From Balanoglossus misakiensis (taxonomy: Eukaryota > Animalia > Hemichordata), in contig CM082576.2 of assembly GCA_040954595.2 (NCBI GenBank), positions 13,023,129 through 13,087,128 of the forward strand: DNA of 64,000 nucleotides, written 5' to 3'. This document shows positions 4,130-56,700 of the stretch, piece after piece. Under the pieces are notes generated by a model. It was not told where the DNA came from, did no database searches, and saw only the letters and a list, made by a program, of their open reading frames with translations. The position numbers and the translations under genes are program-made. The stretch's first letter is position 1. Every line of letters begins with the position of its first letter.

Positions 4130-4829
4130 TTTTATGAAATAAACGAGTGAAAGTACTTGATTCCTGTTTGTTAAACAGGTATGGCTGGATGACAAATCAA
4201 TAGAAATTCGTCGTTGCTTGCCGTCTCTGTCCCGCTTGCGAATTTGACAAGAAATGCGTCCACTACATGCAGTGGCACTACAACAAAGCGTCGGCCAACG
4301 GACTTCCCAGCATTTGTTTTGCTGCTACACGAAGCGGGCGATCAACATCGACGGTTTTTGAGCAGTTACCTGCAAAGTACGAACACAAAAGTCGGCAAAG
4401 TGATAAAATGTGTTGATTATATGCACCTGGCACTGTCAGTTTGTCGGGGTAGTGCGCGGTGTACGAGAAATTCCCCGATAATTCTGCATTTGGGTGGGTC
4501 CGTTTTAAAGCTTGACACCCAGCAACTTTGACCCGGAAGAACAAATCGTTCTGGGTCGCTTGAACGGAAGTAGCAGAACTCGCTACGTCAGGCTTTTCCG
4601 GTTAATGATACAGTGAAAAGAAAAATGGCATTTTATTCACAGAACGTGTAATGTCAAGTAATTATTGAATTATAGATAATTTTCCTAGAAATTGATTGTG
4701 TCTAAATATTAAACTGTTTTGAAAATATGAAAACATTGAGTGTAGTGTTACTATTAATTGCCCGTGCCCTGCACGTGTTTACCAACACATGTACATGTAC
4801 GTGCAGCGAACAAGACATACACTGACAAC
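4130..4829. promoter_or_regulatory. Bidirectional promoter region between AIDA and FKBP3
   Basis: Divergent start codons are 700 bp apart. The interval is locally CpG-rich, with ETS-like CCGGAAG/CGGAAGT (about 4533 and 4565) and a TACGTCA CRE half-site (about 4584). Confidence 0.6.
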
Positions 4830-15800: not shown

Positions 15801-18800
15801 GTTTGATAATATCTCAGTATTCCTATCTTGTTTAATGCCAAAGGTTCAGCTTGTCAAGACAGGAAGACAGTTACACACACGCAAATGTGTCCCCTGTATT
15901 CTAGGCAAAGCACAAAGCATTTTAATACCCAGATGCCCGTACGCAGTAAAACTGACTTGCACTAAGAAAAACATTCAATGAACAGCTGGGTTATTGTCTA
16001 CTTTAGATGCATGAAATACTTATAATGACCTTTGTGATGTTACTGCTGCGTAACACTGTGTAATCTCGGTATCTGTAGGAAATCTAAAAAGCATGCTGAG
16101 GAGAAAAAGAAGAAGGTAGAGGAAAGTGAAGATGAGGAGGAGGAGGAAGAGGAGGAGGAGAGTGATGAAGAGGAAGGAGAGGTGGTAGCAACAAAGGCAA
16201 AACCTAAGGCAGGTGCTCAGGATGATGATGATGATGATGAAGAAGATGATGAGGAGGAGGAGGAGGAAGAAAGTGAAGAAGATGAAGAAGATGAAAAACC
16301 TGTTAAAGCAAGTCAAAAGAAGACAGTACAAGATGAGGAGGAGGAGGACGATGAAAGGTAATTATGCAGGCTGTAATCTGATTACAAGATTCTGTTTTTT
16401 TTTTTCTGACTATCTTCTATTAGGAATGCACCTTTTTGATGTTGTCAAGCAGATAACACACTTTGTACACGGTTGCATGCAGTTGACATCTTGGTAATTT
16501 TGTGAGTTGGATGGCAAACAAACTCGTTGTCTCATTGATGAAATAGCCTTTATATAAGAATGGCACTCTGTAGTGTTTTTTTATAGTACATTACCCTGTG
16601 TGATCTCTGTATTTCTCTGCAACAGCCTTGAAGATGAGGAGGAAGAAGATGAAGAGGAGGAGGAGGAGGAGGAGGAGGGAGAGGATGATGAAGAGGAGGA
16701 GGAGGAAGAAGAAGAAGAAGAAGAATCATCTGAGGACGATTTTGATCATGCTGAATCAGATCAGGACTCTGATATCCTTGATGAAGGTGTAAGTGGACGC
16801 AACACTGACATTTTACATTAGAACATGCACCAGAGTTCTCTGCAAACACCATGCATTCTGATTGTAAGTGACACAAAACGGTCATGTCCAATTTACATTT
16901 AATGAAAGTCTCTCTCAAAACAAACTTTAATACTCACTGTTATGTGGTACATGTATATTTTCCCAGATGAAACAGTTTGAAGCTGTTTGTGACTTTCCAG
17001 GCGAGCAGGAAGACGATTTAGGATTCAAAGTTGGCGATGTGCTGACCATAATGAGCACCAGGTGAGCGGTGTTGTGGAAAATTAATTGTTCTTCTCAGAT
17101 GCAAATTTAACCACTGTTACCATGGAAAATACATATCCATGATCATTCGCACACCTAGGCAAGCCCTTTTAACCATATATAGGCATATGTTAATTAGAGG
17201 TGACTGTAGATCTTTAAAATGCTCAAATATCTGTTGATGCCCGTGACTTTCATCTGTACCCCTCTCCATGCCTGGGTTTCTCCTTGATCACCTGATCATC
17301 ATCTGATCCCGTTGTTTGCATCGTCAGGGAGGATGGCTGGTGGACGGCCGTGGATGAGGAAGGGAATAAAGGTCTTGTGCCAAGTACTTACTTAAAGGTG
17401 AGTTTTCCTTTGGTATGACGTAAGTGCTGGTGTATGTGTACCAAGTATGTGTGGAAGTCACGAAAAACAGTTTACATGTACTTTCAAATAGTTAGTACAT
17501 ATACATGACATTGATTGTACAGATACTAACATCTGGTAAAGTCTTAACAGTGAATTTTAATATAGAGAAAAGCAGGTGTCTTATGTATGCCACTAATATT
17601 AACCCTGGACAACACACTGCAAGCAATACTACCAGCATACACTGTTGTGTGCATGTAACTGAAACCTTTCTTGGTGGATTACCACCAACATCATCCTAAC
17701 CTTTACATCCTTCTCTTTCTTTTCTTTTTTCCAAAGCTGAAAAAAGATTACTCAGACCAAAGAGATCTGCAGTCTCCAGAGGGTGAGTCATACAGAAATG
17801 TTATTGGTTTATAATAAACGACTGAAAATTGAATGTGAAACTCAAGTCTCTTCTTATTTCACATATCTGACAATCCTGTATAACTACATGTATAAGCATC
17901 AATTTCTTGACATCGAACAATTCTATGCAATTATTTTTGAGATCTTGGAGTCCTAATTTTTTTCACAATTATTGCTATATATTTTAACTTTCTACAGTGT
18001 GTAGTATGTGTATAGTCTTATTCAAGACAGTTTATAATTTGATCATAAAACTAACTCAGCCCTGTGCATTTTGGAATGGGTGATTCTTTTGGAGCGTGAC
18101 AGTGCATTATAATGGTGAAGGAAAAGAGGATCATTTAGGCGACAATTCAAATATGTATGATGTTGTAATAATCTTACGATTCCAAGAATTATTCAAGTGC
18201 ATGAACGTCAAGCATGTCGTAAATGCTATCACCCTCAACATCGTGACTGTGTAAATTAAGATGTACACATCTCCTTTACTCTGTTTGACTTTTTCATTCA
18301 GCGCCCCAGTCACCAGATCCAGAGACCCCAAAAAGGTCAGCCATGATTCTGAAAGAAAGTGCTGTGAACTGTCTCTTTCTTTTCTATTAAAAGAAAGACC
18401 CACACATTCAATTGGAATGATCCATTCATTTTTCCCGGTGTCCGCCATGCCAACCGACTGAGGGGACATATCATTACATTTCTAGTCATGAAGATCATTG
18501 CATGTACCGTTTGCATGCGCTATCCGACATTCAGAAGCATTTCGCATGTACAAATTCGGGAAAATCGATTTTACATCTGAATATTTACAAAGTCCACACA
18601 TTTACACCAACCCTTGTCCCCCCAAAACATCACAACAGTTGAATGGATGATTCCAAACACAACCATTTCCCCCTCAATCTTTCTGCACGTTGAGAGCTGT
18701 CCCTTTTCAGTGTTATCTTAATATTCCAGCAGACACTTCTCTACTAATTTATATTTGTTTATTTTTTTTTCTCTGTCAACATATGTTAATCTTCCGACAC

Positions 18801-25805: not shown

Positions 25806-28558
25806 ATATTCAAAGCACACTCATAGCATTTTACTCTGAAAATAATTCTAGCGTGATCTCACTGGGGATCAATTAAAAAGATCACATGATGCATTAGATT
25901 GATACTGGAATTCACAAATCTTCCTCAAAGTAGATACTTTGTGCCTGACAGAAAGGATCAAAGTTTAAATCATTGAAACTCCTGGTGAATTGGTTTCAAA
26001 ACTGCATTTAGTGTGAATTTTTCGATTCTTTGATGTTTGTAGGTGCCTTGCCTATATAGTGTACATGAAAGCTTTATTCAAAAGTTATATTGTGATATGT
26101 GAATTCTTTAGAGTCCTGAGACAGGAGACATGTACCAGTAGTTAAAAATTTCATTTTTGGCCGATTAAACTCCATACTAAAAACCACTTCAAATCTTATC
26201 AACTAACCAAGTTCAAACATTTTACTTTTACACATAATTAGTCTGTATCACTATCAGTGATCATTACAGATATGATAATATACCATCCCATACTAGTAAC
26301 TGATTCCAAATAACAACCTGTTAAAATCTTCTCGACACTTATCAACTTGCCAAGTTCAAACATTTCACTTTTACACATAATTAGATGTATCCGTGATCAT
26401 TACAGATATGAAAATATACATGTAGATACCCATTGCATCCATTTCAAAATTATTGCCACTTTTAATGGACAATTTCTTACAGGTTCAACCCTGTTACATA
26501 ATAACATGCCATCTTAAGAGATGAACAATATCTTGGAATATCCAGCATTACATGTAACCTTCAACATCCTTACAGAAAGTCCTAATTCATACATTTGCTT
26601 TAAAAATCTTGTTGGAAAACAACCTTCCAATTCAGTTTTTACACTCCATAATTATACAACAATGTGACCTAAAAGTCGTATTGACTGCAACAACACAGAC
26701 ATTAGTTGTCTTTTGGCCAATGTTGAAAACGAGATATTGTCCACACGCATCATTGCCTGGTATCCATGCAATATTCAAACTAGTAGACTAAAAGGGTTAC
26801 CTTCGCACCAAATATCCAGACAGATAACCCTCTTGTACATTGCAATCTCCACGGCAGAGCCTACTTTGGAATTCTATCAAATGTTTCTCTCTTGCTTTTA
26901 AGAATTTTATAACTAAAACTACAATCACCCAAGTGCTCTACACCTAAACAAAACACAAAAGTAAGTTGTTTTTTTATTATTATTTTTTTTTCATCATTTT
27001 ACCATGGACTGTCCAGAGTAAAATGTGTATAGATTTTTTGAAAGATGATGAAGTGTTTCAGTTTTGAGAGTTTCATGAACACAAATGGTCAGGGCCTTTG
27101 AATGCCAAAGAATATTTCAGTGAAGGCAGGAATAGAAAACCTCCATTTTGGAACGGGGAGACTGGCTAAATACACAGCATGTCCACCACAGTGTTGTGGG
27201 TGCTGTGTGACATCTGGATTTCATGAACACAGGAATTTCAAAATACACGATGGAAGATGTTGCAAATTGGACACGCAAAAACCTGGAATGTTTCATCAGA
27301 CTGACCATTTTGGTCTTTGGATGGATGACCATTACCCCATGATAGCGGTTTCAACTCTCAGACCATCATAAACATCATTGCATCTTTCCTTTTTTTTAAC
27401 ACATTGAGTGAAAGGAAGAACAAAATTTGATCATTTTGTTTTTTGTACCCCACTGAATAAAAGTTATGTCGTGAGGTGAAAGAAAACTTAAATATCTATG
27501 GCATTCATACGAACACACCTTTAATACAGTAGTATGTTACAGACATGTTCGTTTTCGTATCAATAACACTATTAAACACAAATTTTCAAGTGCTTGCTGA
27601 GGATCAATAGCCCTACCACTCCCTTCATTGTTTTGTGTTTGGAAGTTTTCACACAAAATGAATTGGCCTATGTAGCTGACTTGCTGATTCTGAGAAACTT
27701 TAGTTTTCCATTTTTTTCTTGTTTTCCTTAATGTTTTGTTTTGTTTTGTTTTATTTACTTGTTACAATTTGTTTGTTGTTGTTGTGCTTTTCTTCACTTG
27801 TATATTTGGGGAAGTGGCTTTGTATAGGTGATTTGCACCTATCCTATGTAGACATATTTTCTGCTTTGCCATGGATGAATCTTATAAAAAATAAAGACAA
27901 AAAAATATATAAAAAAAGAGCAGTGCACCTGTAACAAATAGTTACAGGATACAAAGCGTCTACTGGTTCACTCTACAGAAATTTCCAGGCCGGCATACAA
28001 ATCATGCCAAAGCTCAAGCTCTTCTTCCAAATCAAGAAATAAAACAAGTTGATGAAAAATAAACCTAACTGATAGCTGTTGCAGCCACTATCTAGTATAA
28101 CTGCAGATACTTAGGCAGTCTACTTTCATTTTCAACTTACTCCTAATCTTCCTAGCTGTTGTGCGACTGTGTAAAGCAGTTGACCAAGCAGAAACAACGT
28201 TACCAGGTAACCAGTGGTAACACGAAATTTTATAAATACTTTACAGCTGCAGTTAAGCAAGCTTTGCATAAACTTTTGAAATAAATAGAAACCCCAATTA
28301 ACTGGACCAGAGAGAAAGCAGTGACAAAAGAAATAAAAGTGATAAGATCAATATTTTTTTTAAAATATTATTTCATCGCTAAGTCTGCATACGGCCAACC
28401 TAAAAGATAGACATGACTGATGCAAGGAAATTAAACCCTGCTGTTCGAATCAGTGCTTTCTCTGGTTCAGTGAAAATGGGTGATCCATAAATAGAATAAA
28501 TTGCAATGCAGGAAACGTAATCCAAGGGGCATCAGTCTTCAGCAGACTCACCATTTAA

Positions 28559-29258
28559 CCCTTTCACCAACATGGTTTGGTCCAAATCCAATTTTTCTTA
28601 AAGGGGAAATCCGTCGTAGCTGATTTCTACATAATTTGGTAGCTTTGATGTCACTCTTTCAGAAAAAAACATATTCGCCATGTATAGGTCGCGCGATTTT
28701 TTACAAAATCTAGGGAAATTTCCAATATGGCGTTTACTGTAATTTGAATCATGGGAAAAAAGCGCCAGGACCAACTTCCGCCCACCATGGTGTGGGTGAT
28801 ACCATTCTCCGATAGGTGTCACTGGGCGACAGACTAGGCGTATTTTCATAGCTATTGTTTGTTCTTTGCATCAGTTGATAAACAATCATCAGCAAAGTCG
28901 AAAATTTGTCATCTATTGACAGTTTTCATGAGCTATAACCCATGGAAAATATGCAAATACGCTTAGCTTGTGAGGCAGTGACACCAATCGGAAAATGGTA
29001 TCACCCACACTAAGGTGGGCGGAAGTTGGTCCTGGCGCTTTTTTTCCCATGATTCAAATTACAGTAAACGCCATATTGGAAATTCTGCCAACTTTCCCTA
29101 GATTTTGTAAAAAATCGCGCGACCTATACATGGCGAATATGTTTTTTTCTGAAAGAGTGACATCAAAGCTACCAAATTATGTAGAAATCAGCTACGACGG
29201 ATTTCCCCTTTAAATAACAGTAAAGTTGGACCCATACAGAGGGTATGGGATGAAAGGG
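28559..29258. mobile_element. Tiny (~88 bp) piggyBac-like MITE interrupted by a larger MITE
   Basis: TTAA|CCCTTTCA... at 28555-28566 and ...TGAAAGGG|TTAA at 29251-29262, i.e. TTAA target duplication with CCC/GGG termini. Confidence 0.7.
28602..29209. mobile_element. Palindromic TTAA-flanked MITE (T2/Kolobok-type AGGGG termini), copy 1
   Basis: TTAA TSD at 28598-28601 and 29210-29213. About 250-bp inverted arms begin AGGGGAAATCCG and end CGGATTTCCCCT. A near-identical copy lies at 59577-60195. Confidence 0.92.
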
Positions 29259-29854
29259 TTAAATCTTACTCACTGACATTAGTTTATTTTAGTTTCTTTC
29301 GATAGACTACCAATCTGCTGTTCTGTGCAATGGCACTGAAAGCTCAATCACCAGCTGATACAATCCATCACCAGGGTTCTGCCCAGCATGACTTGAGTGC
29401 AGGCAACTTCATACTCATTAATATTCATGCTCATTCATATTCATATCTGTTGCAAGTCATAACCATTCATCAATAGATTTGATTGAGTGCACAATAGTGT
29501 CTGCTAGCAGTCTTTGTTTGCTAGCTAATTTCTCTGCCCTCCGCCACTGTCAGGCGTAGGCAGAACCCTGCCACTTACACTCTGTATGTGGACATACCAT
29601 ATACTACACAATTTATGGTATTGACCTAAAAACATGAATCTTACTATGACAATTTTAAGGCACTGATTAGTGTCCATGTACAGGGTGTAATGCAAGTCAA
29701 AAGAACAACCCAGTGACTGAGCCCATTCCAATGGGTAGAGCAACATGGCGATTTTCAACAGAATCTAAAATAACCAAAGACAGTCAGCGACTTTGCCCCC
29801 TTACCAATTACATTTGTAACAACAACAAGACAAAAGACAACAACCAAGACCTTA

Positions 29855-32800
29855 TCATAACTTGCGGGGGCAGAAGGCCTTGTAGTGACCAGGCTGGCCA
29901 CAATTGAAACACGTACGGCCACCATGATATCTTCCTTTGGCCGTTGGTGACTTTGGCTTGGCCATTGAGCGTCTGGACACTGGTGTTAGGTGAGGACGTA
30001 CTGTCTCATTGAGAGTGACTGATGTGCTCTGCAGTGGTGGAGGTTGCTTGACGGCCGATGAGTAGGATGCCGTCCCTTCCTTACCAGTGCCTCGAGTTGG
30101 TCGTTGACTTGGCTGTCCGTTAGTTGTCGTGACAGATACTTTACCAGCATTACTTACAACGGATATGGTAGAACTCACGCTTGTGGTCTCGATTTCTGCA
30201 CCAGACAATGTCCTTTCAATTGTTATCTTTTGCTAAAGAACAGATAAAATTAACAAGAAATTAATTATGGTGAATGATTCACAAATAAACAGTTACTATA
30301 CGATTATGTTGAAAATTTGCAGGGAGTGTGTCTGGTTCTAATAAGCAACTCACCCAACTCGAATCACCCAGATCGGACGTTTCATCAGGTGTGCCATCGC
30401 ATCCCCCGATGGCTCCCAACAAACTCTCATCCCCGGAGACTCCCAATAATCTCTCATCATTCTGGCCAGGTTGACCGGTCTCGCTGATGGCACTAGCGAT
30501 GCACTCGGTGGCTTTTTCATTGGCGGTCCGGATCAGCACGTCGGCCAGGCGCCTCAGGTTGGCCGTTGCATCCTGCATCCCGATCAGACCCAGCATCTCC
30601 ACAGCATCATCACCACAGAGGTCATGGATGTTGTTCACCAGGTCCTCGCGACTGAGCTCAGTCAACTTTCTCCCCGGAGTAAACTGTGCCAAGGGAGCCG
30701 CTGTTTGTCTTTGCTGGCTGCTGTCACCCTTCAGTTCTCTTAGGGCCTTGGTAACATCCTTCCCAATCAGTACACATTGTGCTGACTGCATAAGTACAAC
30801 TGTATCACAAACATAAGTTTTCATGTCAATTCTTTTATGCTGTGCTGAGAAATACTCGTTTAATGAATGCATCTTTTGGCAATTTTTACACAATTTTTGG
30901 TACTGACTGACAAAAAATTAAATGTTACAAGCATTCATGTGGCATGTCTGCTACTTACAAGTAACATGGCATGAGTTGAGTTGTAATAACTTCTTATGCA
31001 GCATTTCATTGAACAGAACAAAATAAGCACCATAGAGTTTAAACACAAACTGGTGGACATTTTGAATTAAACTTTGCAACAATTTTGCTCTTTTGTTCAA
31101 ATTTTGCATGGTGAACCGCAATTTCCATTCTCAGGGGGTAAAAACCTTAAATTGGTTTGACCAAAATAAGAGAAAACTGAGATTTTCGAGGCGCATTATG
31201 ATCACACAACGTTCACATTTGTTACCTGGTTCTGGTGTCTCCTGTATTCCTGATGCAACACCATTGCTGATCTTCTTTTCATCCTCCCTTGCTTCTAAGT
31301 AGTCAGTGCCATCTTTCATCATCTTCAAACGCATTTCATGCGATGGCCTGTACTGCGACATTTTCAGTTCGTCTTCCAGTTTCTGGTTCTGTTCTTCAAG
31401 CCAGGCAATCACCTTCCTCTGTTCCCGCAACTCTTTCTCAATTTTCTCCAGTTTGTCCAGGCAACCTTTGGTTTCTTCCTGATGTTCTTTCAAATGTCGG
31501 ATTTCTTCTTTCTGTTTCTCATTTTCTTCCTAGAAATTTTCAACATTGTACTGATAACTCCAACTGCTGTATTTTACATGTATTAATCATTTAATATTTG
31601 GGATACTATCAAGGGCCTACTAATTATGCAATATCAAAATAGGCAAGTGTTACGTGAGGATTAATTTTTGCATACTCGTATTTCTACGCATCTGTATCTC
31701 TGTAAATATATTACGCGACCTTTTATTTTCACATTTTTGTTACTCTCGCGTATTTCGTGAAAATTTATTGCTCGCGAAAATAACCTGTTTTACAGTATTT
31801 CATCAAATGAAAACTGCTGGAAACCAAATTAATGGCTGTACCCACCTGTAGCTTGATGAATTGGCCTTTAAATTCTTTAAATTCTTGTATTTCTCTCTGC
31901 ATATCCTGTATCTGTTTTTCCATCTCCACAACAATTCCAAATTGGTTGTCCATCTTTGGTCTTTCACTCTGTAACTCTGTTATTTGTCGCTTGTTTACTG
32001 TGCATTCAAGAGCCAGAGATTCATGCTGTCTTTCATAGTGCAACTGAAGCATACGTAGATGTTCAGCAACTCTATTATGAAGGTGAAGCCCATGTTCTCT
32101 TCTGGTGCCCTGTACACAACGATACAACAAACAATGTCTCACCTCAGACAATACTTAAGTTGCTGAAGCCACAGAGATCATGGGAATTGTGGCAGCATAC
32201 AAACTGACTGCAGTACATGCACACAACAGAGTGGAACTTTATGAATTTTCACCACACTCATATTTAAGTAAAAATTACATAACATAGGCTGTAGCATGGC
32301 ACACACATATTCTTTCCGTCAATGTATGTAATATGACATATTTGGCATTTTCTGCTTCCATAGAAGACTAATGATACAAATACAAACAGTTCCCTAAATC
32401 CTGTGACACTTGAGTATAATACATGAAAACAGAAATGCACACATATTTTTTCACAGCACACACAGAACACAGCACTCAACGTCAAACCACACATAACAGT
32501 ACACTATAAACTGGAGCTGTTTTCCATAAAAACTTCACTACAATAGGAAAACAGTCAACAGCAAAACATATCACTCAATTACCAACTTTCTCACATTCAT
32601 TTCACCATCCATGGGCATATACATGTACAGTCTTCTAAGTGCATGCATCCTGTTATTGAAGCTCAGAGTTTTGTAAGATCTTCACCTGAAAGGAGCAGCC
32701 ACTCAGTTTGAAGACGCACTGCACACGTACTAGCGGACATTCTTGCAAATGGCTCTCCAGCTGAATTAGTAAAGACAAATCATGAATTGGGATGAGGATC

Positions 32801-34923
32801 AGTCACAGAATTAGTTGTGAAAAAAGTCTTGATTTTGCCAGGTTTGTAGTCTGACTTCAGAAATTTTGAGCTAATACTGCAAAATCATATTTTATGGGAC
32901 AACTGGATCCACACAATCAAGGATTTCCACTTTGACCAACTATGAAAACAAGTTTTGCAAATGCATTGGTACAATACTTCCAAATGTAACTGCCTGAACA
33001 AATAAAAAAATCCATTCTGAAAAATTAGCTTCTTTTATCACAACAGTACAAATGTAGTTTTATACCAACATCTACAAACAAAATTTGTATATATTGATTG
33101 CACATGCGAGTGGTTTTTGCTGGTGTAAGACTGGCTAGAGTTTTGAATACTGATAATTCTTTACCTGGTTCTTCTGAAATGTTTCTTCATGATTACAATT
33201 TTCAGGACATTTCACAGGAACTTTTGTACAAATTTCAGCTTCGTGATTCTACAACAAAACATTATAGAAAATAAACAATTATTATCACAACAATAGCCTG
33301 TTATGTAAATACTAATACTTCAATGTAACATATAATCTGATAGTGTTTACACATATGATGCAAGAAACATGAGACATTTTCGTGAGAAGATGAAAGTGAC
33401 ATGATGTATCACTAGAGACAGTTAAAGGTATAGAGTCACCCATGAAAATGTAGTCACAGTTATCATCAAGTGGAGATCTAACCAATCACATATTTTCAGT
33501 GGATGCACGGCCATGCAAAAAAACACAACTCCAACTTCTTAGACTCAAACACGCCTATTAAATATAAATCATTCAGCCTACTCCTTAGAGTGTCACATGA
33601 CGTCATCAACCATCATGCGGCAAAAATGATCACTAACATATATCTGCTGACATTTGCAGGTGCTTGCTTGGCGGTCACGCACTCACCTGTAATTCCCGAA
33701 ACGTGCATTCGTGCTGGCAATGCGCGCAGGTAACAACTCTGGCAGGGCACTCGTCTGCAAGGTGTTCCTTCAGCTTCCCTCGCTGAAGATTCACGCCGCA
33801 CCCACCGTTTGTGCATTCTACAGGCACCGACTCACAGGAATCTCCAAGGTGATTTTCATAAGTCTTCAGTGCACCTTCCCACTTGCAATGCCCACATATG
33901 ACGATCAACTCCTGCATCTCCCTGTGTGCTGATTTGTCCTCGCGAAATTTGTCTCTGCACAGCTGATCATTACAGTCTGTTGCCGGGCACCTTGCCTCAC
34001 TGCAAGTGATCAGAAAAGCATATTTACATGTCGCAGCTCGCATACATGTCTTTGTCATTCGAATTCCCCCAGATTTTCAATATGACAAAATGGCTCCTTT
34101 TGATAGGTTACATGTATGTCTTACTTCTCAGTGAAATATGCACAATTTATATGTGAATAACTACCACAACTATTTTTGAGGTAGAACACAAATGTATTTC
34201 ACAAATGTTCATGTACCTCAGAACGTGGAATGAGGTAATTGTACATGAGCTCTGACAATAGTCATTGAGTTACTTTAGCCAGCACAAGCACATAGCCTCA
34301 GTTTCAGAAATTAAAATAACCAAACTGATGTCAAAAGTGAGCAACCTAATGTCCTTTTAATACTGCAATGTACAGAGGAAAAATGGGAACAGACTAGACT
34401 AGCACTTGCTATTTTCTGTTCCCAACTACCCTTTCATTCAAACTGATATTTATTCATGTGCTATATAAATATTTTTCACCCAAGGCCTTGAAGGGTAATA
34501 AATCGAAACTGAATTTTATTTGTGATGAATTGGTACCAGTTTACAAAGTGAAAATCTCATTACTGGGGATAAAAAATATGACATTATATAAATAGATGTA
34601 GTTAGTAACTCACTGTACATTTTACTGGACCCTCAAAAAATACAATTTTTTATCCCAATACCGGTAGAGTCAACAGAGTGAAAATAAAACCACAACACCA
34701 CTCCAACTTCTGTTTCCCCAAAAGAGTACATTTCACAGCCAGTTTATACAAAAATAACAGACATGTGACAAGTATATTCTCACCTCACAGCCTCTTCAAT
34801 ACATGACTCACAGAATCTATGTCCACAATTGTTTTGGTACGGTTCCTTCAAGGGATACCTGCACTTGGTACAGATCAAACAATTTTCCAGCTTTTCCTTG
34901 AAGTCAACAAGATAGCCAACCAT
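29855..34923 (-). CDS. Divergent TRAF-family paralogue: RING + TRAF zinc fingers + coiled coil + unrecognised segment + C-terminal CCHC zinc knuckle; no MATH domain; about 682 aa
   Basis: Exons 34923-34784 (CTKC...CGHRFCESC RING), 33999-33687, 33248-33165, 32760-32686 (TRAF-type fingers, e.g. HLADECPARVVTCAHC, HLQECPLVRVQCVFKLSGC), 32109-31846, 31529-31226 (coiled coil), 30844(or 30781)-30354 and 30232-29855 (ends CFNCGQPGHYKAFCPRKL*). All boundaries are GT-AG and phases are consistent with no internal stop. Joining of the last two exons is inferred from phase only. Confidence 0.82.
31650..31797. mobile_element. Partial TACTGTAAAA-ended, CGCGAAA-rich MITE
   Basis: Ends TTTTACAGTA and carries CTCGCGTATTTCG(C/T)GAAA motifs shared with 35863-36068, 45554-45688 and 50347-50420. 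Confidence 0.6.
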
Positions 34924-35838
34924 GATGACAGACGGTTAAACTGTTCTCTACACTTGTGTGGACCTTTATTCAGGTTATTACATAGAATCTGGAAAATGAT
35001 GATAATTAACCCATAAATCAGAAACACTGCTCATTCTATAACACTTAGTCTACACCAATGACCAATCCCTTTAGTTTATTGAACCAACTTATAAACCCCA
35101 CGCAGCCCACCAAATTGGTTAAAATCTGACAGACTATACACATGACATGGACAGACATACATGTACATAAAATGGTACTTTCTTCATACCAGTGCTCCTG
35201 TGTTTGAACATGAATGGAAGTCAAAATATGTTTCCTACTAATATTCATATATAGCTACCGGTATTTTGATTAGAATGTTACTGCATGCAGTCAGCATCGA
35301 TCATCTTGTTCCTGCAGGACACATTATTATTTCAAACCTGGGACATTCGCCTTTTTGTCACCTCTGTACGCTGTGGTGCCAGTATACGCTCACCACCAAT
35401 TTACATACGCCCATATATGGCTGAAATGTATTTGAGTGTTCTAAAGAACGTATGGTGGCGCTCTTTTTTTCGCGTGTGCCACCCACTGAAAATCTGAGAT
35501 TGGCTAGATCTCAATATTTGCCATGGTAACTTTTGCTAAATTTGCCTAGGTGACCGTATAATCGGTGCAGTGTGTGGATTCGCGTTTGTTAGACCCTCAA
35601 ATAGGGGACCTGCGTTCTAAAGTGATTCATTTGAAAATACTCAGAGTATTTCCCGCCTCAAAGATCCTGGAGGCCGAAAGTTCATGTGTTTGACACGGTA
35701 AAAATAGTCATGAAAACAGTGCATTACCTGTGAAACTGCCAATGTCAAAACATTTCCATGATATGTACAACTGCGTCATAAACGAGACGAACACCTCGAA
35801 GTACAAGTGCCGGCGCGACGCGAAATTTAAAAATAGAC

Positions 35839-35849
35839 GGGAAAGTCCC
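35839..35849 (-). promoter_or_regulatory. Canonical NF-kB site at the putative promoter of the TRAF paralogue
   Basis: GGGAAAGTCCC reads GGGACTTTCCC on the minus strand. It lies about 110 bp upstream of a candidate non-coding exon donor (CAG|GTAATG at 35728) that can splice to the acceptor at 34988. Confidence 0.55.
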
Positions 35850-35862
35850 GTCAGGTCCAGTC

Positions 35863-36068
35863 ACAGTAAAACGGGAATATTTTCGCGACATGAAATTTTC
35901 GCGATATCAAAAGAGGCAACTGTTACTCGACGATTAAATTTCGCGTTCTCGTATTTCACTGCATCGTTAGATCTCCGAAAACATTTTTACGCGAACTTTT
36001 TTCGCGTTTTTTGGCTCTCGCGTATTTCGCGAAATTTTATCATTCGCTAAAATTTCCCTTTTACAGTA
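35863..36068. mobile_element. Short TA-flanked MITE (CGCGAAA-rich family)
   Basis: Imperfect TIRs (A)CAGTAAAACGGGAATATTTT and AAAATTTCCCTTTTACAGTA. Internal motifs are shared with three other fragments in the window. Confidence 0.7.
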
Positions 36069-37807
36069 CATGTATATTTCAACCGCTGGCTGCGCTGTGC
36101 CACAAGAAAAGTGTAATCTTTGGGCTTTTCGGCACTCTCTGAATAGCGCACGTTGTGATAAAATATGAAATATGAAGGAAAGTGACTGATTCTCTCTGCT
36201 TGTGCCACGAATCACATTCTTCAGTTCAGGATCGATCAATTTTGACATTGCCAGTGAATGCAATGAGGGCGCTATTCCGACTTCTCAGTGGACTTGCCAG
36301 TGCAGAAACTGGTCTTGTGATTTAAATTCTTTAAGCTTGAGTATTAATTCATAGCAATCATGCATATTCCAAAGATACAAATATTTAAATACTGGATATG
36401 TTGGGTTCTTTATTATTGGCAGTGATAAATGCTCAGTGTTACAAGAAATAAAACGTTACAGGATAATTGTTTTACAGATCAGCGTTCCAATACAAATGTA
36501 AATCATTGCAGTAAAATTTAAAAAACACATGATATATTAAAGTGTTTACTATGAAACTTTCATAAATGTTAGCTAAGGTGTATAGATGAGGCAGACGGCA
36601 ACAAAAATAGTAACAAGGCCACTGTGCTGCCTTTGGAGCAAAATTTGCACAAGCAAGTGTGATATAAAGGCATTACACATGTACATAAATTATGAGATGT
36701 GATAAATGAAAAAATCTGATAAAGATTACTGGCAGTGGGACCTGGCAAATTAAACATCAATACAGATAAAAAGGATAATAATTGGCAATAGAACAATAAA
36801 TTTATGTGGTCATTATTTTTATAAACTGTAAAGTAATAACACTGAAACTTTATATACCTTATGATAATCAATAAAGCACAATCTGGAAATGGTATGTAAC
36901 TCAAATTACAAAAATATACGAATATAACTTTTTTTTAACAAATATTATTCATTGTGGACGTGTGGCTTGGTCAGAGGGAAAATGGGTTTGAAAAGTATTT
37001 TACAGAAATTAATATTGATTTCATGCTAAATGTATATGTATCGTGATCTGGCTATCCTTGGAAATGAGAATGTATAGCGCAGTATGTGGCTATTCAACAA
37101 AGACTACCAAGGGAAGTTGTGTAGCAAACACAGGAGCAGACATGACATTCTACTTATCTACTTGTCCAAAAAGCATTCTACTTATCTACTTGTCCAAAAA
37201 GTTTTTTTTTTCTGTGTAATATTATTACATACACAATGTCATGATGTCTACGTGTACAAACTACATATCATGTCGCCAGAGCGACTGTTGTCAATGGTAA
37301 TGTCAACAGAATTCACATCTACACAGAAAACACCACGGTTAACTGCCTTTGTATCTACCGTACTCACTATGCTGAATTGTTTCTATCCCTATAAACAATG
37401 TTTTATTCCCAGAAACCTAAACTCTCCTTCCTGGGAATGAACTGCGTACGATGAAAACAAATACAGACTTTGGTTTGACATGGGCAACTACTTGAACTTG
37501 GTAGGGAATCTTCAAGAAGTCATTGTATTCATGACAGGCAAATGTTTGATTGTTCCCCCCATATGCGCTGTTCCAGCAACTGTCACTCCTCCATGGAATG
37601 GGGTAACACACACATCCCCTTGTTTGTATTTAAGTCTGCTTTATGTACTTTGTAGGGTTTACTGCATGGTTAACTACTGCACCGTAGTCTTAAAATATCC
37701 ACTGCCCAGGTAAAGCAGTCACATACACATCGGGTTTAGAGTCTGTTGTGTCATCCATCGATCATGACCATTCCATTTTTCTGGTTGCGTAAACTTTCCT
37801 TGGCCAA

Positions 37808-40800
37808 TTATGGACCGTACAGGTCTGACGTGTCCACGATCATTTTGACGAACAGCGTGTCATTCTTGACGTAAGCGGGCGTTTCCAGGACTGACTGCGA
37901 CACAAAGAGCGGGCAGCCGGAGGCAATGTTCATGTCACTGCTTGGACGCTTGAAGCTGCTGCTTGTTGGATCCGGTTTGAAGGTGTCCGATAAATTGCGA
38001 CGCCCGGTGTCTTGATCCAAGAGTATCAGGGTCACCTGGGAGAGAGAGCATGATGAGACCATTGTAAGTGCATCTTACATTTGATGAAACAAGGCAGGGT
38101 ATTTGTTGTAATACCAAAATTGGTGGAGAACGGTGGAATAAAAATCAAGGGGGGAATACAGTGTAAGGTTGCTTTCAGGGATCGTCATTTCAAAGGCATT
38201 CAAAAAAGTACATGTAAAGATTTTAAAGAGATGTTACTTTTAATGGTAGAGTTTATATTGCAAAATGTGGTAAAATGTTGCATGTAACTGGTTGCGATTA
38301 CCATAATGAACAATCTATGAATGGGTCTCCTGTCATAAAACACTGTACTGTATTAAGTAAGGCTTAATGTTTGAGCAAAAAGCACAACACCACAACATCT
38401 CTATGCAAATTTGGAGGCTCAAATTCTGTCAAAAAATTGGGACATGCAAACCTCTGATACAAACTCTTGCCCTGCAGTCTTGAATCTTACCTTCTGCCTG
38501 AAGGGCCAGTCCAACAAGGCATCGTAATCTCCCCGCATGACCACAAAGAACAGCGACATGTGGGTGTTTTTACCCATACCGTCACCGTTCAGGTAGACCC
38601 TGGCACACATCTTGTAGCCGTACCGACTGGTGTAGAACGGCTGGCTGTACAGCGACAGAGTCTTGCCCACCACCGCTTCGTGTTTGCGCCGGGTGTAGTC
38701 TTTGATCTTCCATATCAGAATCCCGTCGTAGCACGCCGTCTCTAAGATTTGAAATTTGATGTCCTGCTCCGCCAGTCGGATATCGTGCATGCCGAGTTGA
38801 GTTCCGATCTGAGATAAGGTCTTCCTTATTTCCTCTGCAAATACAATGAAAGGATTTCCATCTTCCCGTAGCAAGAAAAGCATATCAGGCAGATTACCTG
38901 GTAAAACTATACTTAGGACTGTGAGTAATGTGTAGACACTCGGCACTATAGTACTGACAGTGCAAAATTTGTAAGTTTGGTTGTTGTTTTCATTGACAGG
39001 GGGAGATACATGAGATAGAAAATCCTGTTAACTTTGCAGAAGGCAGGACACAAACTTTGACAATTAAGTTATTGTAACAATTTTTGCCCCTAAACAAATA
39101 TCAATTTCGAATCTATTTTTTTACCTATATCAGCTGCATGGACACCACCAGTTGTTCTCACCCGAAGTCTTTCAGATTCCATGGTATCAACCCTGCCGTC
39201 CAATCTACGACAGGTTTCTTGGACTGCCATGGACAGCCTCTTACACTCTTCAATGTCATCTTTTTTGGCTTTTTGGGTCAAGTCATGTTCAATCTTCATC
39301 ATTCTATCGTTCATGGAGGCAACGCTTTTCTGTGAGGAGAAATTTCAAAAGGTGGATAGGTAATGATTTTTGACAAAGTCTACGAAGATACATGTATTAT
39401 ATACATGTTCTGAGCACTTTGGCTGATGCTTTCCAAAGTAGAAATAAAAAAACATGCATGCCCCAATGCGAGTATATAGCCAACAATTCTTTACAAAGTT
39501 CTGTTCACCGTTGCATTTGGTTATTACACATACATGTAGAGCTCCGCATTCAATATCACAAATGTCCAAAAATTATTTGTGACATTGCCGCCACATTCAT
39601 TTATTAAACCATTTCTTGTCACAGTCAGCAGACCAGACATGCACTCACATGTGAATCTCGGACTTTATCTTCCGTTTTGCCACTCTGAATCTCCAATGTT
39701 TTCACTTTTTCTTCAAGATGCTCCACTCTCTGTTTGGCTTCGTCCAACTCCTCGGCCTGCTGTCGGTTTTTGCTTTCCATGACACTCCGCTGGTTTTCCA
39801 GTTCAGTGCAACGCCGGTCGACTTGCGACAGCCTCAGTTCAAGTCTGGAGTGGCTCTCCGTGACAAGTACGAGGTGATCACTTGTTGACTGGGAGACGTG
39901 TTTCTGGAGCTCAGTGAAGGAACCCTAGCAGGAAATGAAATGATGTCAGTAATATTACTCTTTGCATGCAGTGGGAGCAGAACAAGCATCCAAACAAAGG
40001 GTCTCCAACAGTGACATAAAACAAAATTTACACACTGTCAATTTGAAACAAGACAACAAAAGTGAACCAAAATATGTCAAGTATTAAAATGTGTAGGTTG
40101 CCGGATTGTGTGTGTCTGTTGTTGTTGTTTGTAGTCATTTTATACAACTACAAACTTTGTAAATTTGTGTACAAAAGCTCTCCCTAATGCCCAGTTACAA
40201 TACTGGGCACATTGCGTGTTTGACAACTGGGTCTTTCTAATAAATCAGTCATCTGTAGAGTTCCTTTGTGCAATGGCGGATTACAAACAACTACGCATTA
40301 CACTTCTTTTATCCATTCTCTTTGTTGCATGTCCACCATTTTTTAACTTTGGCCAAACAACTTAAAATAGCGAATTTCGAACTTGAAGTCATGAATCATC
40401 ACCTGATTTCCTCAAAATAACTTGTGAACCAGGAAAAAATACGCCAACAGTTTCACTTTTGTCCGCCAGTCTGTTTCGTCATACTTTTAAGCGTCATTCG
40501 TTTGTTTGTTTGTTTGTTTACTATTTACATTCAAACCTTTTCGTTCCATTCTAGCATTTTTTTCAGACAGGTCACACAATTTTTGAACTTGCATAATTTT
40601 GGTGACAGGTGGAATTGAAAAGAAAAAAAGTCAACATACAACAATTCATATTGTAATTGCAGCTAAAGTTATTGTACTAAATTTGACCTTTCCTCTGTGT
40701 GTGAAAGGTCAGCAGTTCCACTGAATGACACAGAAGTTGTACCACAGAGGCTGAAGGAAGAAATGGGGCAATAAATCAATCATCAAGATGACCTTGACCT

Positions 40801-43436
40801 AGAAAGTTTTTCTATTTTCTTAAAATACTTTGCCTAAATCAAACTAGCTTAAAAGTCTTCACTTGCCACATTAGTGTTTTGGCAACGGGATCACCACCGT
40901 TTTACTGTCTGTCAGTGGTGGGTTAATCCCTGCCAAAGCTTGCATTCTAACTTTCAACAAGAAGTGCTGTTACATAGATTTTCACACAAATTCCAACTTC
41001 CAACACTTACCCTAAACTCACACCCATATTCATTGAAATGGCAGGTACTTCGCTGCATGGGACATTTTTCAAGATGCTGATCCAACTGTGTGTGTGTGAG
41101 AAAGGACAGTTCAAGTTATTTCTGGTCACATTCATCCATTGCATGTCTACACGCTCAGCCATTATAAGGCTGTTTTCATTTTGAAAATGTTGGGTAGAAA
41201 ATTGGTTTCCAATCTAAATTTGGCTTGATGACTCTAAACTTTTCAAAGCCAACCGTACTGCAAAAGCCACTATAAATCACACTCTCACTCAATATATATA
41301 TATATATATTAATACTAAAATGATATTGTCTTCAGAGATGATTTGAAAGAACTAATAATTCATACCCACTCTTCTAAAATGGATCAAATAAAACATCTTG
41401 AAACTTAAGTTGATAGTAGGTGGTTTATATTGGATCAGATAAAATTGATTTGTTCTTCCTTGAGTAAAAAATGGCTTGGTCTCAGCTCTGTCTTGGAGAA
41501 ACTATGTTCAAATGACCGTTGTATCATTGAGCAAGGGCCGGGATATCATTCATGACATTCAATGTGACCACAGAGGGCGCCATTCATCATGCTGGACCAT
41601 TAGAAACAAAATCCATGCGGTACCTTACCAGGTTTTTAACAAAATATGTAATAAAAATAAGATATTGTGGAAGGATGATAGCACAAATCGTATAATGTAT
41701 CTTATAATCAACCTGCAAGCCTTTAGAAGTAATAAGGCTACTGAAACACGAATAATCTTGAATTTACTTCGCCATATGAATCTAATGAAAATAAATTTTT
41801 GTCTATTCTTCGGCTCAGGGCCACTGTTCATTTCTTATTAGGATTTGTCATCATTTGAACTTACCTCCTGTCTTGCTAAATCTTTAACTCCACAATCATT
41901 CGGACATGCAACTGGGGCTGCGTCGCACTTTTCTATATGGTGCTATGGAAGATAATAAAAATGTCACTTGAATACTGATGTTTGAAGTCTGTACCTGTTG
42001 TTCATAACTGCTCTACCCAAACAACGACAATCGTCTCCCCTCCGACAGGAATACTTACTTTCAGATCTTCGTAACTCATCGACTCCTGACAGTATTCACA
42101 CGTAACTTGTCTGTACTGACATTCCGAGCTCAAATGGTCGGCGAGATGTCGTCTTTCCATCTGGACAGAGCATCCTCTGTTTTTATGCATGCAGTCGATG
42201 AGAGCGAACTCGCATTCCTGCAAGTGTTTGTCGAGTTGTTTCAATTTCAGAGTCACAGAGCAACCTTTGTCCCTGTTGTAACAGTACACTGTAGACTTTT
42301 CAATGTCTCTGCGTGCAGCATGGTCACGGGAGAATCCCTCGCTTATGGGTTCTTTGCAGTCTTCCACGCAACAAACTGGATTTTCAGAGTCACTGAAGAA
42401 ACCAAGAAAAATAGTCTATGATTAGAATAATACATCAGGTGGACAGTCTCGAGCTGGAATTCTGCATGCAAGTCACACTCAGTGTTTTGTGCACTCAAAG
42501 TCTCTATGTGATTGGCTACTGGAACACTATTTTGTATAATGCGAAGCAAACTGTTCCACCATTCTGCACAGACAAATTGTTTATTTCTTGTGTTTGCATA
42601 TCAATGTCCGGAATAATAAAAATAGTACAACATGATACTTCTGCAGCATCATGATTCAGTTAGGCTGGTGCTCCCTGACCATAATATTGACTATCTCTCT
42701 CACCTTCAGCCTGGTTGTAGCATTATCATGAGTGTGGTCAGAGAGAACAAGCCTTACATTTATCTCAATTGTATTTCCCTCACCATCACATAATCCACAG
42801 ATTTCATAAGATGTGGAAACTGTTGAGGCATAAATGCGGCATATGCTAATTTCTTTATGCTAATTTTGTGACAAAATTAGCATATCGCCCCACCATACAG
42901 CTGCGTTTCCACAGCTAAGATATCATGTGCCCTGTCATGACTGAACTGATGGCCAATGAACAGATAAGACCGTTAACTGGGAATGTTACACACCACAAAA
43001 AAAAAAAAAAAACTTTTTTATAGTCATCAGTTTATAACTCAAGTTTCCTCAAGGTAGTTTACTGTCCTCATAGCTGAGCAAGATTTGAGGGTTGAAAGCC
43101 ATGCTACAAAATCACCACACAGATTAACAACGTGAAAAAATGTTAATGTGTTTCACTTATATTTATTAGGGAAAACCACAAAGATAATACTCATGTATCA
43201 TTTTAATGAACACAGGGTACTTTATACCTCACGATTTGTTTGATGCAGAACTGACAATATCGGTGTCCACATTCCAGTTGATGGGGTGACCGGACAACCT
43301 TCTTACAGTAGCGGCAAATATAATTTCTGGCAGGTTGTTCAACAAATATTTCTAGGGGATATCCGTCATCACTGAGAGAATCTACCGATGTGCCTGATAG
43401 GAGTAAGCTCGGTGTGCTTTCTGAAAGTGCTGCCAT
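37808..43436 (-). CDS. TRAF3: TNF receptor-associated factor 3-like (RING, zinc fingers, coiled coil, MATH), about 582 aa
   Basis: Exons 43436-43228, 42392-42059, 41942-41865, 41085-41011, 39924-39649, 39329-39125, 38834-38491 and 38035-37808 total 1749 nt in frame. RING: CRYC...CGHRYCQFC. MATH: YDGILIWKIKDYTRRKHEAVVGKTLSLYSQPFYTSRYGYKMCARVYLNGDGMGKNTHMSLFFVVMRG...FKPDPTSSSFKRP..MNIASGCPLFV...IVDTSDL, closest to TRAF3 as I recall it. Confidence 0.92.
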
Positions 43437-45553: not shown

Positions 45554-45688
45554 TACTGTCATAATATTGGAATTCCCAGGTTTCAACACCATACAATCAT
45601 CAAACGCGAAAATTAATCCTCACGCAAGAGTTGCCTCTTTCGATATCGCGAAAATTTCCTGTCGCGAAAATAACCCGTTTAACAGTAT
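45554..45688. mobile_element. MITE copy of the CGCGAAA-rich family
   Basis: ATACTGT...TTTAACAGTAT ends. GTTGCCTCTTTCGATATCGCGAAAATTTC is the near reverse complement of sequence in the 35863 element. Confidence 0.6.
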
Positions 45689-47975: not shown

Positions 47976-48207
47976 ACCAGCAATATGAATAGATAAACTT
48001 ATTCTACTAAAAGACAAACACTTACAAAAAAAGTTGGGCATCAAATTTATTGATCAATAAAAAATGTTGACAGTAGCAGTTCAGCCCAACATTTACAGGT
48101 AGAACACTCTCCATTTCCAGGTAAAAAAAAATCATGAAGATTGCGTGAAGCGACATCTTCAAGATTATGGCTGTCTGATGCTGTGAAGAAATTCGTTGTA
48201 CTGAGCT

Positions 48208-52009
<3,802 letters not shown>

Positions 52010-53738: not shown

Positions 53739-56700
53739 ATGATGGAAGCAGTTGATCTGTATGATCCCCAAACACTGGGAGTTGCAGTGTTTGCTGGATT
53801 TGTTGTCCTGTCCGCAGCAGTGTATTTGGTGTCCGCGTATGGTATCCGAGAGAAAACCTATGAAGAAGCCATAGCGGAGCAGAGGAAGAGAGCCGAGAAG
53901 GAGCAGCTGGTAGTTAAAACGGAAGCCAAGCAGAAAAAGGAGAGGAAGCAGTATAGGAAGCACAAGAAGCACGCGGCCGCTGCCGACCAAGGGGGTGGCG
54001 GCGGGGGGTCAGTGAGGGTGGAGGAGCCCCCTCTTCAGGAGGCCGACGTCCCGCTGCAGCAGGAGGCCGAGGTGTTCAACCCCCAGGCGGTCCTCGCCGA
54101 GGTCGAGCCCAGGGTGGAGAAGTCGCCTAAAGCGGAGAAGCCGAAGCAGAAACACGAGGCGGCCAAGGAGAAGAGGAAGGAGAAGAAAGTGGAGAAGGTT
54201 GAGCGAGAGGTGGAGTCCACCCAAGCGGCTGCTGCTGCTGCTGCGGCTCCTCCGGTCAAAACCACGCAACCTGTGAAGCCGATCATGAAGGAGGAGAAGC
54301 CGGCCAAAGAAGTGGCCAAGGTTGCTGAGGAACCCCCTGTCACTGTCAAGAAGGCAAGTGAGGTGGAATCCAAGAGAGATCTGAAAGATGTTGAGGATAA
54401 AGGAGTAATTGGCTCACCGGCAAAGAAGAGTTCAAAATCGGCAAAGGAGAAGAAAGAAAAATCAGGTAATTGTGTATTATAGCTTTCAGTTGCATCCTAA
54501 TCAGTCTTTGCTTTCCAGTGATATTGGTTAACCAAGAAATATGTTGGATCCTAGATAATATACCAAAAAGTGTGCTCTTCAATGGAAGTATTTTTGAACA
54601 ATAAATGACCAAAATATTAAATCATGATTGATATAGTGCATACATGAAGATAGCCTACAGACATAAAATGTTGTACTTTGGACATAAAAATACTAATGAG
54701 AGTTGGTTATCTGAAAGATTTTGCATATAATGGTTATATGTTGTGTTCCTAGTTGAACATTAAATCTGTGTAATTTGCTATCATAATTCATCTTTGTAAT
54801 ACAATGGGTGACCCTATGAAGTCACTGTATGCAAAATAGGGTTATCCAACCTCCACGTGCGCTGTAAAATCAATTTCCGACTGATTTATAATGCCATGAA
54901 TTGTTATGCCCTTTACTTGGGTTTAGAATAAGCCGGTCCTCCTTATAAAGATATACATTTGAATACAAAGCACCTCAAAGTCAAGTTGAAAACTATACAT
55001 GAACAGCAGTATTTGAAATTTCTGTGTCGGTGCTGCATGTTGAAAAGGACCCTGTCTGAATTCCCATTTCAAACTTTGAGTTTTTGCAGTAGTAATCAGG
55101 TGTGACCTACATTAGACAGTTTGGCCGAACAGGTTGTGTTTGATTGCCACCAGTCCGTATTGCTAAGAAAAGAACAGAATAGTCCTTTGTTGACCATTCA
55201 TCTTGGTTCAATAGAGGTAATGGTCTTCGACAGAATCCAGACAGTGGTATTGTTGTTGACACTCCACTATTACATTTTTTCTTGCATTGTGGCTGTTTTT
55301 AGATCATTTTATCTTTGGCGTGCTAAGCTGCAAATGTTTTGTGAAAGATTTCAATCACGTCAGGATATATGCGGATTGTCTTGTACTGTGCAGTGGTGAA
55401 TTCAGATTTCCATGTTGATGTACAAATAAAGTAAAGAGAGCTTAGTTGCGACGCAGGAAGGATGCTAGTCCAGCTTTAATTAAAAGTCTGATTGCCATTC
55501 TGATTGTCGCCCATTGTAACCAGTTTTGAACTTTGAACTGGCCTGAACCTTGTCGGCGCACACATTGATTGTAATTGATGTCATCAGAGTTGGGAGATAT
55601 GTAACAGTGTTGTACATGTACAGTACTTCATGGGGATAACTAGTGCGTGTTAGACTTATGTTTACACTTACATGTACATGATGTGTACCCTCTACGTGTA
55701 TGTGTAAATGTACATTACATCTGACACAGCCAGTTTTAAAATCCTCGCCTTAAAATATCAGTGAGTATGTATATACCCACAGACAAACTTGCCATTTGAC
55801 ATGGGTACTCATTGGAATCAGTTATTGGGTGCTAAACGTTTATCACACTGTCAAATGAGGCCAGGACTGGCATAATGCATTCACTCATGAATACAGTCTA
55901 ACACAACCTACATTTACACCTGTGTATATATGCAAGGGGCAAAATTTAATTTCTGATGTGCTGAACATGTTATGTCTCCCAAGGACTTCCCAGCTCCTGG
56001 ATAAGGTTTTCATTTCCTCCGAGACAGGATGTTGTCCTTTGTTATGGCGTCGTGTCTGGGCGGTTTCAGCTCGCATGTAGCCGTGTTGAAGTGCCAAGAA
56101 GTGTAACTGATTGGTCAGACTTCTCTATCCAAATTATAATCTCAGACTATTATGGGCATGTGTGCTGCCATGGCAACCTTGCATGCTGTGGTTTTGATCA
56201 GGTTTTATCGTAAATGGGGTTGCTCCCAGGGTTTTCTAGGAGGGATTTGAACTGACTGCAGGAAAATAGCAGTCACTGTATATCTCCAATCACTACATGT
56301 ATAAGCAGAAGTTGCCACAGCTTGTAGAGCAAAACCATTAGCACAAATAGTACATGTATCTGTATGCATTATAAAAGGCATTTTGTGGATGTGAACTCAA
56401 GTTTCAATGAGACCACAATGCGTTTTAATGGACCTTAGCCTCATGATTGTGTTTGCATATATCATGTAAGAGCAAATTTTTAGATCTGCAAAGGAACGGT
56501 ACATGTAGCTGTAAAAGGAAACTGGATGTTCATGGTGTGACACAATCAGTGATAGATAGATTCTCTTGTGGAAGTCTTCGCGGGGTTCATTCAGCTATTC
56601 TAATGTTCTGAACTGGTGACTCACCCACTTCAGGTCGTTCACATTATACCAGCAAAAAATTAGAAAATTGCATTAAAGGGGAAATCCGGTCCAGCTGATT

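Follow-up and report, generated by a model that had tools for sequence, protein, structure and literature searches.

The C-terminal MATH domain is the receptor-binding part of TRAF proteins, as stated in the accessible part of PMC7179693, and TRAF RING heterodimers such as TRAF5-TRAF6 are active ligases in the available part of PMC5702613. In TRAF7, the TRAF-type RING and finger are retained and the TRAF domain is swapped for another binding module (available portions of PMC7179693 and PMC7586133). Here, we describe a 64,000-nucleotide (nt) stretch of contig CM082576.2 of the acorn worm Balanoglossus misakiensis (hereafter the window), which contains gene A, encoding TRAF3, and gene B, a neighbouring TRAF paralogue. 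Gene B has the RING, fingers and predicted coil of the canonical TRAF1-6 and lacks their C-terminal MATH/TRAF-C. We propose that it belongs to a family with a TRAF-type RING, five fingers and coils, ending in a helical domain and a CCHC zinc knuckle, which arose as an ancient tandem duplicate of TRAF3 and is predicted to be an RNA-aimed ubiquitin ligase; taken as a whole, we judge this proposal to stand an even chance of being correct.

Gene B encodes a protein of 667 amino acids (aa). Its RING (aa 18-56) contains all eight C3HC4 ligands, every zinc ligand of its five TRAF-type fingers is intact, and its zf-TRAF match is above the Pfam cutoff. The predicted coiled coil spans about 170 aa with a heptad hydrophobicity of 0.5-0.88, and the Pfam matches in this region are weak and of coil type only. 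At the extreme C-terminus, a C-x2-C-x4-H-x4-C knuckle with basic flanks matches Pfam zf-CCHC (PF00098) with 25.8 bits against a cutoff of 20.8. No MATH was found in gene B: among 3,428 six-frame segments of the window, the MATH profile matched the two MATH exons of gene A only. No WD40 family matched in Pfam scans of gene B exons 7-8 or of the homologues. Exon 7 has a coding score of 0.064, compared to a maximum of -0.015 in 484 non-coding windows; the margin of exon 8 is thin (0.000 vs. a maximum of -0.007 in 486 non-coding windows).

Homologues of gene B surfaced only with a full HMMER scan of exon 2 against 1.84 billion representative proteins, which gave 1,558 hits; the best 150 were examined. 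Word-based searches returned none among 1,557 candidates with exon 7 and none among 10 with exon 2. Three of the best 150 hits are much closer to gene B than any TRAF3, namely P0154 from Glandiceps talaboti (637 aa), P0145 from Saccoglossus kowalevskii (213 aa, N-terminus only) and P0216 from Ptychodera flava (462 aa). With exon 2, P0154 and P0145 scored 181 and 162 bits, respectively, vs. 126 for Ptychodera TRAF3a and 124 for gene A. The database names of the members are "uncharacterized" (as for P0154) or "TRAF3-like". P0154 has the full architecture and matches all eight exons of gene B, with 47 of 132 residues identical in exon 7 (41% over 96 aa, expectation value (E) 2e-16) and 35 of 111 in exon 8. 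P0216 matches exons 1, 2, 6 and 8, the last with 48 of 114 residues identical. Exon 6 shares 49 of 102 residues with the Glandiceps homologue and 43 of 102 with that of Ptychodera, and a profile of its tail matched no TRAF3. The knuckle is also present in P0154 (22.8 bits) and P0216 (23.4 bits), which are the only proteins among the 150 examined with a knuckle in their last 60 residues, and neither they nor P0145 contain a MATH match. The four members form a clade with 100/97 support, in the order Saccoglossus,(Glandiceps,(B,Ptychodera)), and this branching parallels the TRAF3 tree. At the level of sequence, comparison of these proteins establishes that the family is conserved in three other acorn-worm genera, with its C-terminus in two, and that the duplication is older than the Saccoglossus split.

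Genes A and B are both encoded on the minus strand; their introns are GT-AG and their frames are open. Gene A has eight coding exons of 209/334/78/75/276/205/344/228 nt with intron phases 2,0,0,0,0,1,0 and encodes 582 aa; gene B has eight coding exons (lengths in Table 1) with phases 2,0,0,0,0,1,0. Spliced alignment with the Ptychodera protein P0121 alone independently returned all eight exons of gene A and introns 1-4 of gene B. In exon 6 of gene A, another possible donor was rejected because it broke the frame. For gene B exon 7, the acceptor at 30799, one of five open candidates, is backed by the Glandiceps homologue. The two proteins are 28% identical over 339 columns, and their DNA shows no similarity, with just two matches of 14 and 19 nt (E 0.54). 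A preliminary description of this DNA had given the exon lengths, phases, shared strand and a gap of about 2.9 kb exactly. It had also proposed a matching exon/phase skeleton, and the phases are indeed identical, but only introns 1-4 fall at the same alignment columns; intron 5 (column 407 in gene A vs. 386 in gene B) and intron 6 (505 vs. 643) lie in coil that cannot be aligned. Similarity had been said to end at the phase-1 intron preceding MATH, but similarity to TRAF3 already fades within exons 5-6, upstream of that intron. The suggestion that the MATH exons were lost or overwritten is borne out as a replacement, and the new exons 7-8 are conserved in other species. The knuckle and the gene family had escaped that description.

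The phase match had been taken as evidence of TRAF3 duplication. To this argument the metagenome loci (n=80) are relevant, in which TRAF genes were modelled where the upstream DNA sufficed. In the MATH tree, L047 and L052 are placed outside the TRAF3s, and the best PDB match of L047 is TRAF2 (260 bits vs. 244 for TRAF3). Nevertheless, their introns occupy the same columns and phases as those of genes A and B (112/2, 238/0, 266/0 and 295-296/0). Introns 1-4 are therefore ancestral, and a match in phase is no evidence of descent from TRAF3. Exon 2 of genes A and B alike lacks two introns, at columns 145 and 180, that are found in L047, L052, L040 and L032; L031 has the column 180 intron only. 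The best match of both L040 and L032 is L008, a locus that groups with Lingula TRAF3. Agreement in exon phase is thus no guide to the age of a TRAF duplication, although introns lost in common can help.

The gene-B-alone tree (35 rows, 276 columns) and the family tree (41 rows, 258 columns, with 12 earlier near-duplicate, short or long-branched rows dropped and 12 added) contain no bilaterian TRAF2 or TRAF6; the identity of the Nematostella TRAF6 row was checked. In the gene-B-alone tree, a sister grouping of genes A and B was rejected by the approximately unbiased (AU) test (p-AU 0.0145), and placement of gene B within the clade of gene A, Ptychodera and Glandiceps TRAF3 was narrowly rejected (p-AU 0.0465). 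Because of the former value and the lack of DNA similarity, gene B is not a recent tandem duplicate of gene A. In the family tree, the family is placed as sister to all sampled TRAF3s (94/93; 937 of 1,000 bootstrap trees). Among proteins with a pattern-detected RING, leaving out five acorn-worm duplicates or fragments, a C-x4-C RING end was found in 6/6 acorn-worm TRAF3s and 4/4 family members, vs. 0/98 of the other TRAF3-set proteins and 1/31 of the other hits. With exons 3-5, the six acorn-worm TRAF3s take six of the top seven places among 209 proteins, scoring 63-84 bits compared to 38 for Glandiceps TRAF4, 23 for the TRAF2-like L046 and 7 for Nematostella TRAF6, and exons 3-4 score highest on acorn-worm and amphioxus TRAF3. 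The Ptychodera member (XP_070577605) is numbered directly before TRAF3a (XP_070577606-9), apparently on the same chromosome, and the Glandiceps member is apparently on the same contig as Glandiceps TRAF3. This suggests conserved linkage of the family with TRAF3, although accession adjacency is no proof because Glandiceps TRAF4, on another contig, is only four numbers from P0154. That gene B is an old TRAF3 duplicate with fast evolution is, on sequence comparison, the origin we slightly favour; our caution reflects outgroups picked by similarity to exon 2 of gene B and the missing bilaterian TRAF2 and TRAF6. The local duplication of TRAF3 proposed earlier thus survives as an ancient event, which is still the best origin, and falls as a recent copy of the neighbour inferred from phases.

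Several observations weigh against TRAF3 descent. The family grouped with acorn-worm TRAF3s in none of 1,000 trees (gene B alone fell among TRAF3s in 43 of 1,000), and none of the placements with acorn-worm TRAF3 (p-AU 0.122), TRAF2-like loci (0.128) or Nematostella TRAF6 (0.166) was rejected. Of the 24 residues that are diagnostic of acorn-worm TRAF3, gene B carries just one. The losses at columns 145 and 180 are support and not proof, because intron loss is common in the TRAF family (the TRAF loci L013 and L059 are intronless). The RING/zinc-finger phylogeny earlier put forward as a check gives a divided answer: the full tree places the family as sister to the TRAF3s, but exons 1-2 alone (32 rows) reject the TRAF3 grouping (p-AU 0.021) and join Nematostella TRAF6 in 683 or Actinia TRAF4 in 243 of 1,000 trees. 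In addition, acorn-worm TRAF3s rank only 47-70 of 202 with exon 1 and 48-97 of 209 with exon 2, compared to 1-7 of 209 with exons 3-5, and the best PDB matches of the Saccoglossus member are TRAF6. These exon 1-2 results are what would be expected of a chimera, in which a TRAF6/TRAF4-like gene supplied everything from the RING to finger 3, and the knuckle had yet another source. Fingers 4-5 and the first coil would derive from TRAF3, acquired either through exon shuffling at the phase-0 intron in common or through gene conversion between neighbours. We consider such a chimera doubtful, since exon 2 itself contains two rare characters of TRAF3 type, namely the C-x4-C RING end and the absence of both introns. 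Moreover, the non-TRAF3 rows were chosen by a search with that same exon, which biases the partition, long branches are drawn to slow outgroups, and exons 3-5 taken alone do not reject TRAF3 without gene B (p-AU 0.271). A TRAF4 donor for fingers 1-3 is not claimed because its 79 bits fell to 45 (rank 64 of 209) once single domains were scored.

Less probable still is that the whole family is a non-TRAF3 paralogue of TRAF2, TRAF4 or TRAF6 type that lost MATH and lies beside TRAF3 through an old cluster or chance. The ancestral state of the shared introns and the AU tests, which reject neither TRAF2-like nor TRAF6, are compatible with it, as is the W-x-G motif of finger 1, found in 0/105 TRAF3-set proteins and 8/8 non-TRAF3 metagenome rows; the only PDB match of that finger is TRAF2 (E 0.02). 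However, the best tree, the scores of exons 3-5 far above those of TRAF4, TRAF6 and TRAF2-like proteins, and the two rare characters in common with acorn-worm TRAF3 all speak for TRAF3. We give almost no credence to exons 7-8 being foreign to the gene, as a separate element or chance frames, or to gene B being a recent decaying copy of gene A. Two annotated proteins of other genera carry the same parts in the same order, both exons score as coding above all non-coding windows, and the sister grouping that a decaying copy would demand is rejected.

The helical domain encoded by exon 7 had no match in the ESM Atlas (where exon 2 found generic zf-TRAF clusters only), in NCBIfam, or by Foldseek at E 0.001, and a two-sequence profile had no PDB match over this domain. 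PDB matches of exon 7 to kelch-like designs were dismissed as chance, inflated by repeats, and VopS_N as below cutoff (E 0.04-0.09). Single-sequence models speak neither for nor against a six-helix death fold (PYD, CARD, DD or DED type) and were of low confidence (predicted local distance difference test scores of 46 and 51), with best Z scores of 7.2 and 4.8 to unrelated bundles. No relatives of exon 7 were found in viral contigs. On a retroelement Gag or ORF1 source of exons 7-8, the knuckle is present and 57 flanking open reading frames (ORFs) gave no Pfam match; an old capture would have left nothing of this kind.

CCHC knuckles usually bind single-stranded RNA. The knuckle of the family being conserved and basic, a ligase or co-ligase brought to RNA is therefore predicted. 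The RING, linker helix and finger 1 would form its ligase and dimer unit, and the knuckle a new targeting end, directed to RNA or RNA-protein complexes instead of receptor tails. Since receptors are bound by MATH, which gene B lacks, its product cannot dock as TRAFs do. It may act as a ligase or co-ligase, possibly paired with TRAF3 or TRAF6 through RING and finger 1. The linker-helix Arg is kept in gene B, P0154 and P0145 (three of four members) and is Lys in P0216; it is probably equivalent to TRAF6 Arg126. We put forward only tentatively that the knuckle binds RNA, that the protein is active as a ligase and that it pairs with TRAF3 or TRAF6, the last in the manner of human TRAF5 with TRAF6. 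A single knuckle may bind protein rather than RNA, which counts against the proposal, as does the absence from P0216 of the parts for exons 3-4 and most of exons 5 and 7, with fingers 4-5 missing through loss or annotation and the exon 6 tail and knuckle kept.

The main rival to an RNA-targeted ligase is a decoy or brake which, whatever its origin, titrates TRAF3, TRAF6 or their E2 enzymes by way of its RING and coil, with no access to receptors and only a minor part for the knuckle. The lack of MATH fits this role, as do RING dimer surfaces conserved across TRAFs (available part of PMC5702613) and the identity of only 30-42% between species in the knuckle-proximal exons. On the other hand, three genera have retained the knuckle, the basic stretch flanking it and a pair of linker motifs, although the sequence in between has diverged or gone missing. 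This pattern points to a selected function, and we regard a decoy as somewhat unlikely. Bolder, and quite improbable in our estimate, would be a mosaic TRAF that senses RNA, with a head of TRAF6/4 type joined to the fingers and coil of TRAF3 and to a Gag-like knuckle acquired by capture. Such a protein, retained next to TRAF3 from the enteropneust ancestor onward, would bind viral or retroelement RNA directly and feed into TRAF3 ubiquitin signalling with no receptor involved.

Judged by its sequence, gene A is an ordinary enteropneust TRAF3. It has the RING, fingers, coil and MATH, and it groups with TRAF3 as sister of Ptychodera TRAF3a (99/94) in the tree with the gene B homologues added. In its MATH exon, identity is 89% to TRAF3 of both Ptychodera and Glandiceps and 82-83% to that of Saccoglossus. 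Amphioxus TRAF3 copies have consecutive accessions, and Ptychodera and Saccoglossus have two TRAF3s each (P0011, P0012, P0031, P0124, P0134); local TRAF3 duplication recurs in invertebrate deuterostomes.

Table 1. Coordinates of the two TRAF genes in the window (position 1 is its first letter)
Feature	Position	Strand	Evidence or content
Gene A, TRAF3 orthologue, 582 aa	37808..43436	-	spliced alignment, MATH identity, tree
Gene A exons	43436-43228, 42392-42059, 41942-41865, 41085-41011, 39924-39649, 39329-39125, 38834-38491, 38035-37808	-	
Gene A exons 7-8, end of TRAF-N coil and MATH	37808..38834	-	Pfam TRAF-mep_MATH 99.1 and 60.1 bits, cutoff 27.4
Interval between coding ends, 2,884 nt	34924..37807		candidate AATAAA signals of gene A at 37407, 36414, 35080
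Gene B exon 1, 140 nt	34784..34923	-	start codon and first six RING ligands; Pfam TRAF3_RING 33.7 bits, zf-C3HC4 27.4
Gene B exon 2, 313 nt	33687..33999	-	C-x4-C RING end, linker helix with conserved Arg, fingers 1-2 and most of 3; Pfam zf-TRAF 36.7 bits
Gene B exon 3, 84 nt (33248-33165), and exon 4, 75 nt (32760-32686)	32686..33248	-	zinc finger 4 and first half of 5
Gene B exon 5, 264 nt (32109-31846), and exon 6, 304 nt (31529-31226)	31226..32109	-	end of finger 5, predicted coiled coil, family-specific exon 6 tail
Gene B exon 7, 446 nt	30354..30799	-	predicted helical domain of ~100 residues, then G/S/D-rich linker
Gene B exon 8, 378 nt	29855..30232	-	S/T/P-rich linker, basic patch, CCHC knuckle (aa 650-663), stop; Pfam zf-CCHC

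In the interval between the genes, a Pfam scan of 11 ORFs gave no matches. A short interspersed repeat occurs in gene B intron 5 (31628-31797), between the TRAF genes (35863-36068) and at 45603-45688 and 50346-50418. A palindromic element, about 630-710 nt long and likely a miniature inverted-repeat transposable element, is present at 28553-29264 and 59569-60200 (96% identical), with a 190-nt end fragment at 56668-56860. Exons of an FKBP3/FKBP25-like gene at 5693-6773 on the plus strand (BTHB 53.9 bits, FKBP_C 23.9 bits) provide a synteny marker. Exons at about 48200-50320 on the minus strand presumably encode an enolase-phosphatase E1, which their motifs resemble; single frames had no Pfam match. 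Very acidic and lysine-rich open frames at 11366-16933 and 53850-54400, both on the plus strand, probably represent one or two low-complexity genes, with no Pfam match in the frames scanned. Other unusual TRAFs were encountered outside the window. P0001 (Ptychodera XP_070572516), on another contig, is RING-less with two tandem TRAF3-like coil and MATH units, a mirror image of gene B. L001 carries at 3867-5573 an intronless full-length TRAF of 568 codons, on a 40-kb contig of a viral collection, whose MATH groups with TRAF3s. L012 has two intronless ORFs (2-1309 and 6705-8762), one with a TRAF3-like MATH and the other with a RING and TRAF-like fingers and no MATH match; transfer of this pair to a microbe is possible.

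Acorn worms are the deuterostome group least studied for immunity, and the knuckle, by its sequence, is likely to bind nucleic acid. If our proposal is true, a receptor adaptor was rewired to RNA through the swap of two exons. Three full-length orthologues, one neighbour gene and defined domains make this a small testable system. A literature search covering sources other than subscription journals and supplements found nothing on the gene B family or on a TRAF with a zinc knuckle. The replacement of MATH has a precedent in TRAF7, and the knuckle end appears undescribed.

Compared with known systems, gene B is closest to TRAF3 of the TRAF2/3/5 group, with which it shares the RING, five TRAF-type fingers, coiled coil and four intron positions. 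It differs from TRAF3 in having a helical domain, a long linker and a CCHC knuckle in place of the TRAF-N/MATH end, and in its remodelled finger 1. RBBP6 and TRIM25 are tied to ubiquitin and have knuckle or RNA-binding features. With ZCCHC3, they resemble gene B as ubiquitin-linked or antiviral/anti-retrotransposon-linked RING and knuckle or RNA-binding proteins, an analogy with no homology shown beyond the knuckle; unlike gene B, they have no TRAF finger array. ZCCHC3 is described as a gag-like knuckle protein which suppresses LINE-1 (available part of PMC10351740). In the TRAF5-TRAF6 heterodimer, the linker helix and finger 1 are lent to the ligase activity of the partner (accessible part of PMC5702613), and the linker Arg is retained in gene B; MATH is present in both human partners, whereas pairing of gene B is predicted only. 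The family is a second MATH-replaced TRAF, a conserved one with a different end, TRAF7 being the one such TRAF named in the available parts of PMC7179693, PMC7586133 and PMC5702613. TRAF7 ends in WD40 repeats, whereas gene B has five fingers and a knuckle and is so far a gene of acorn worms only.

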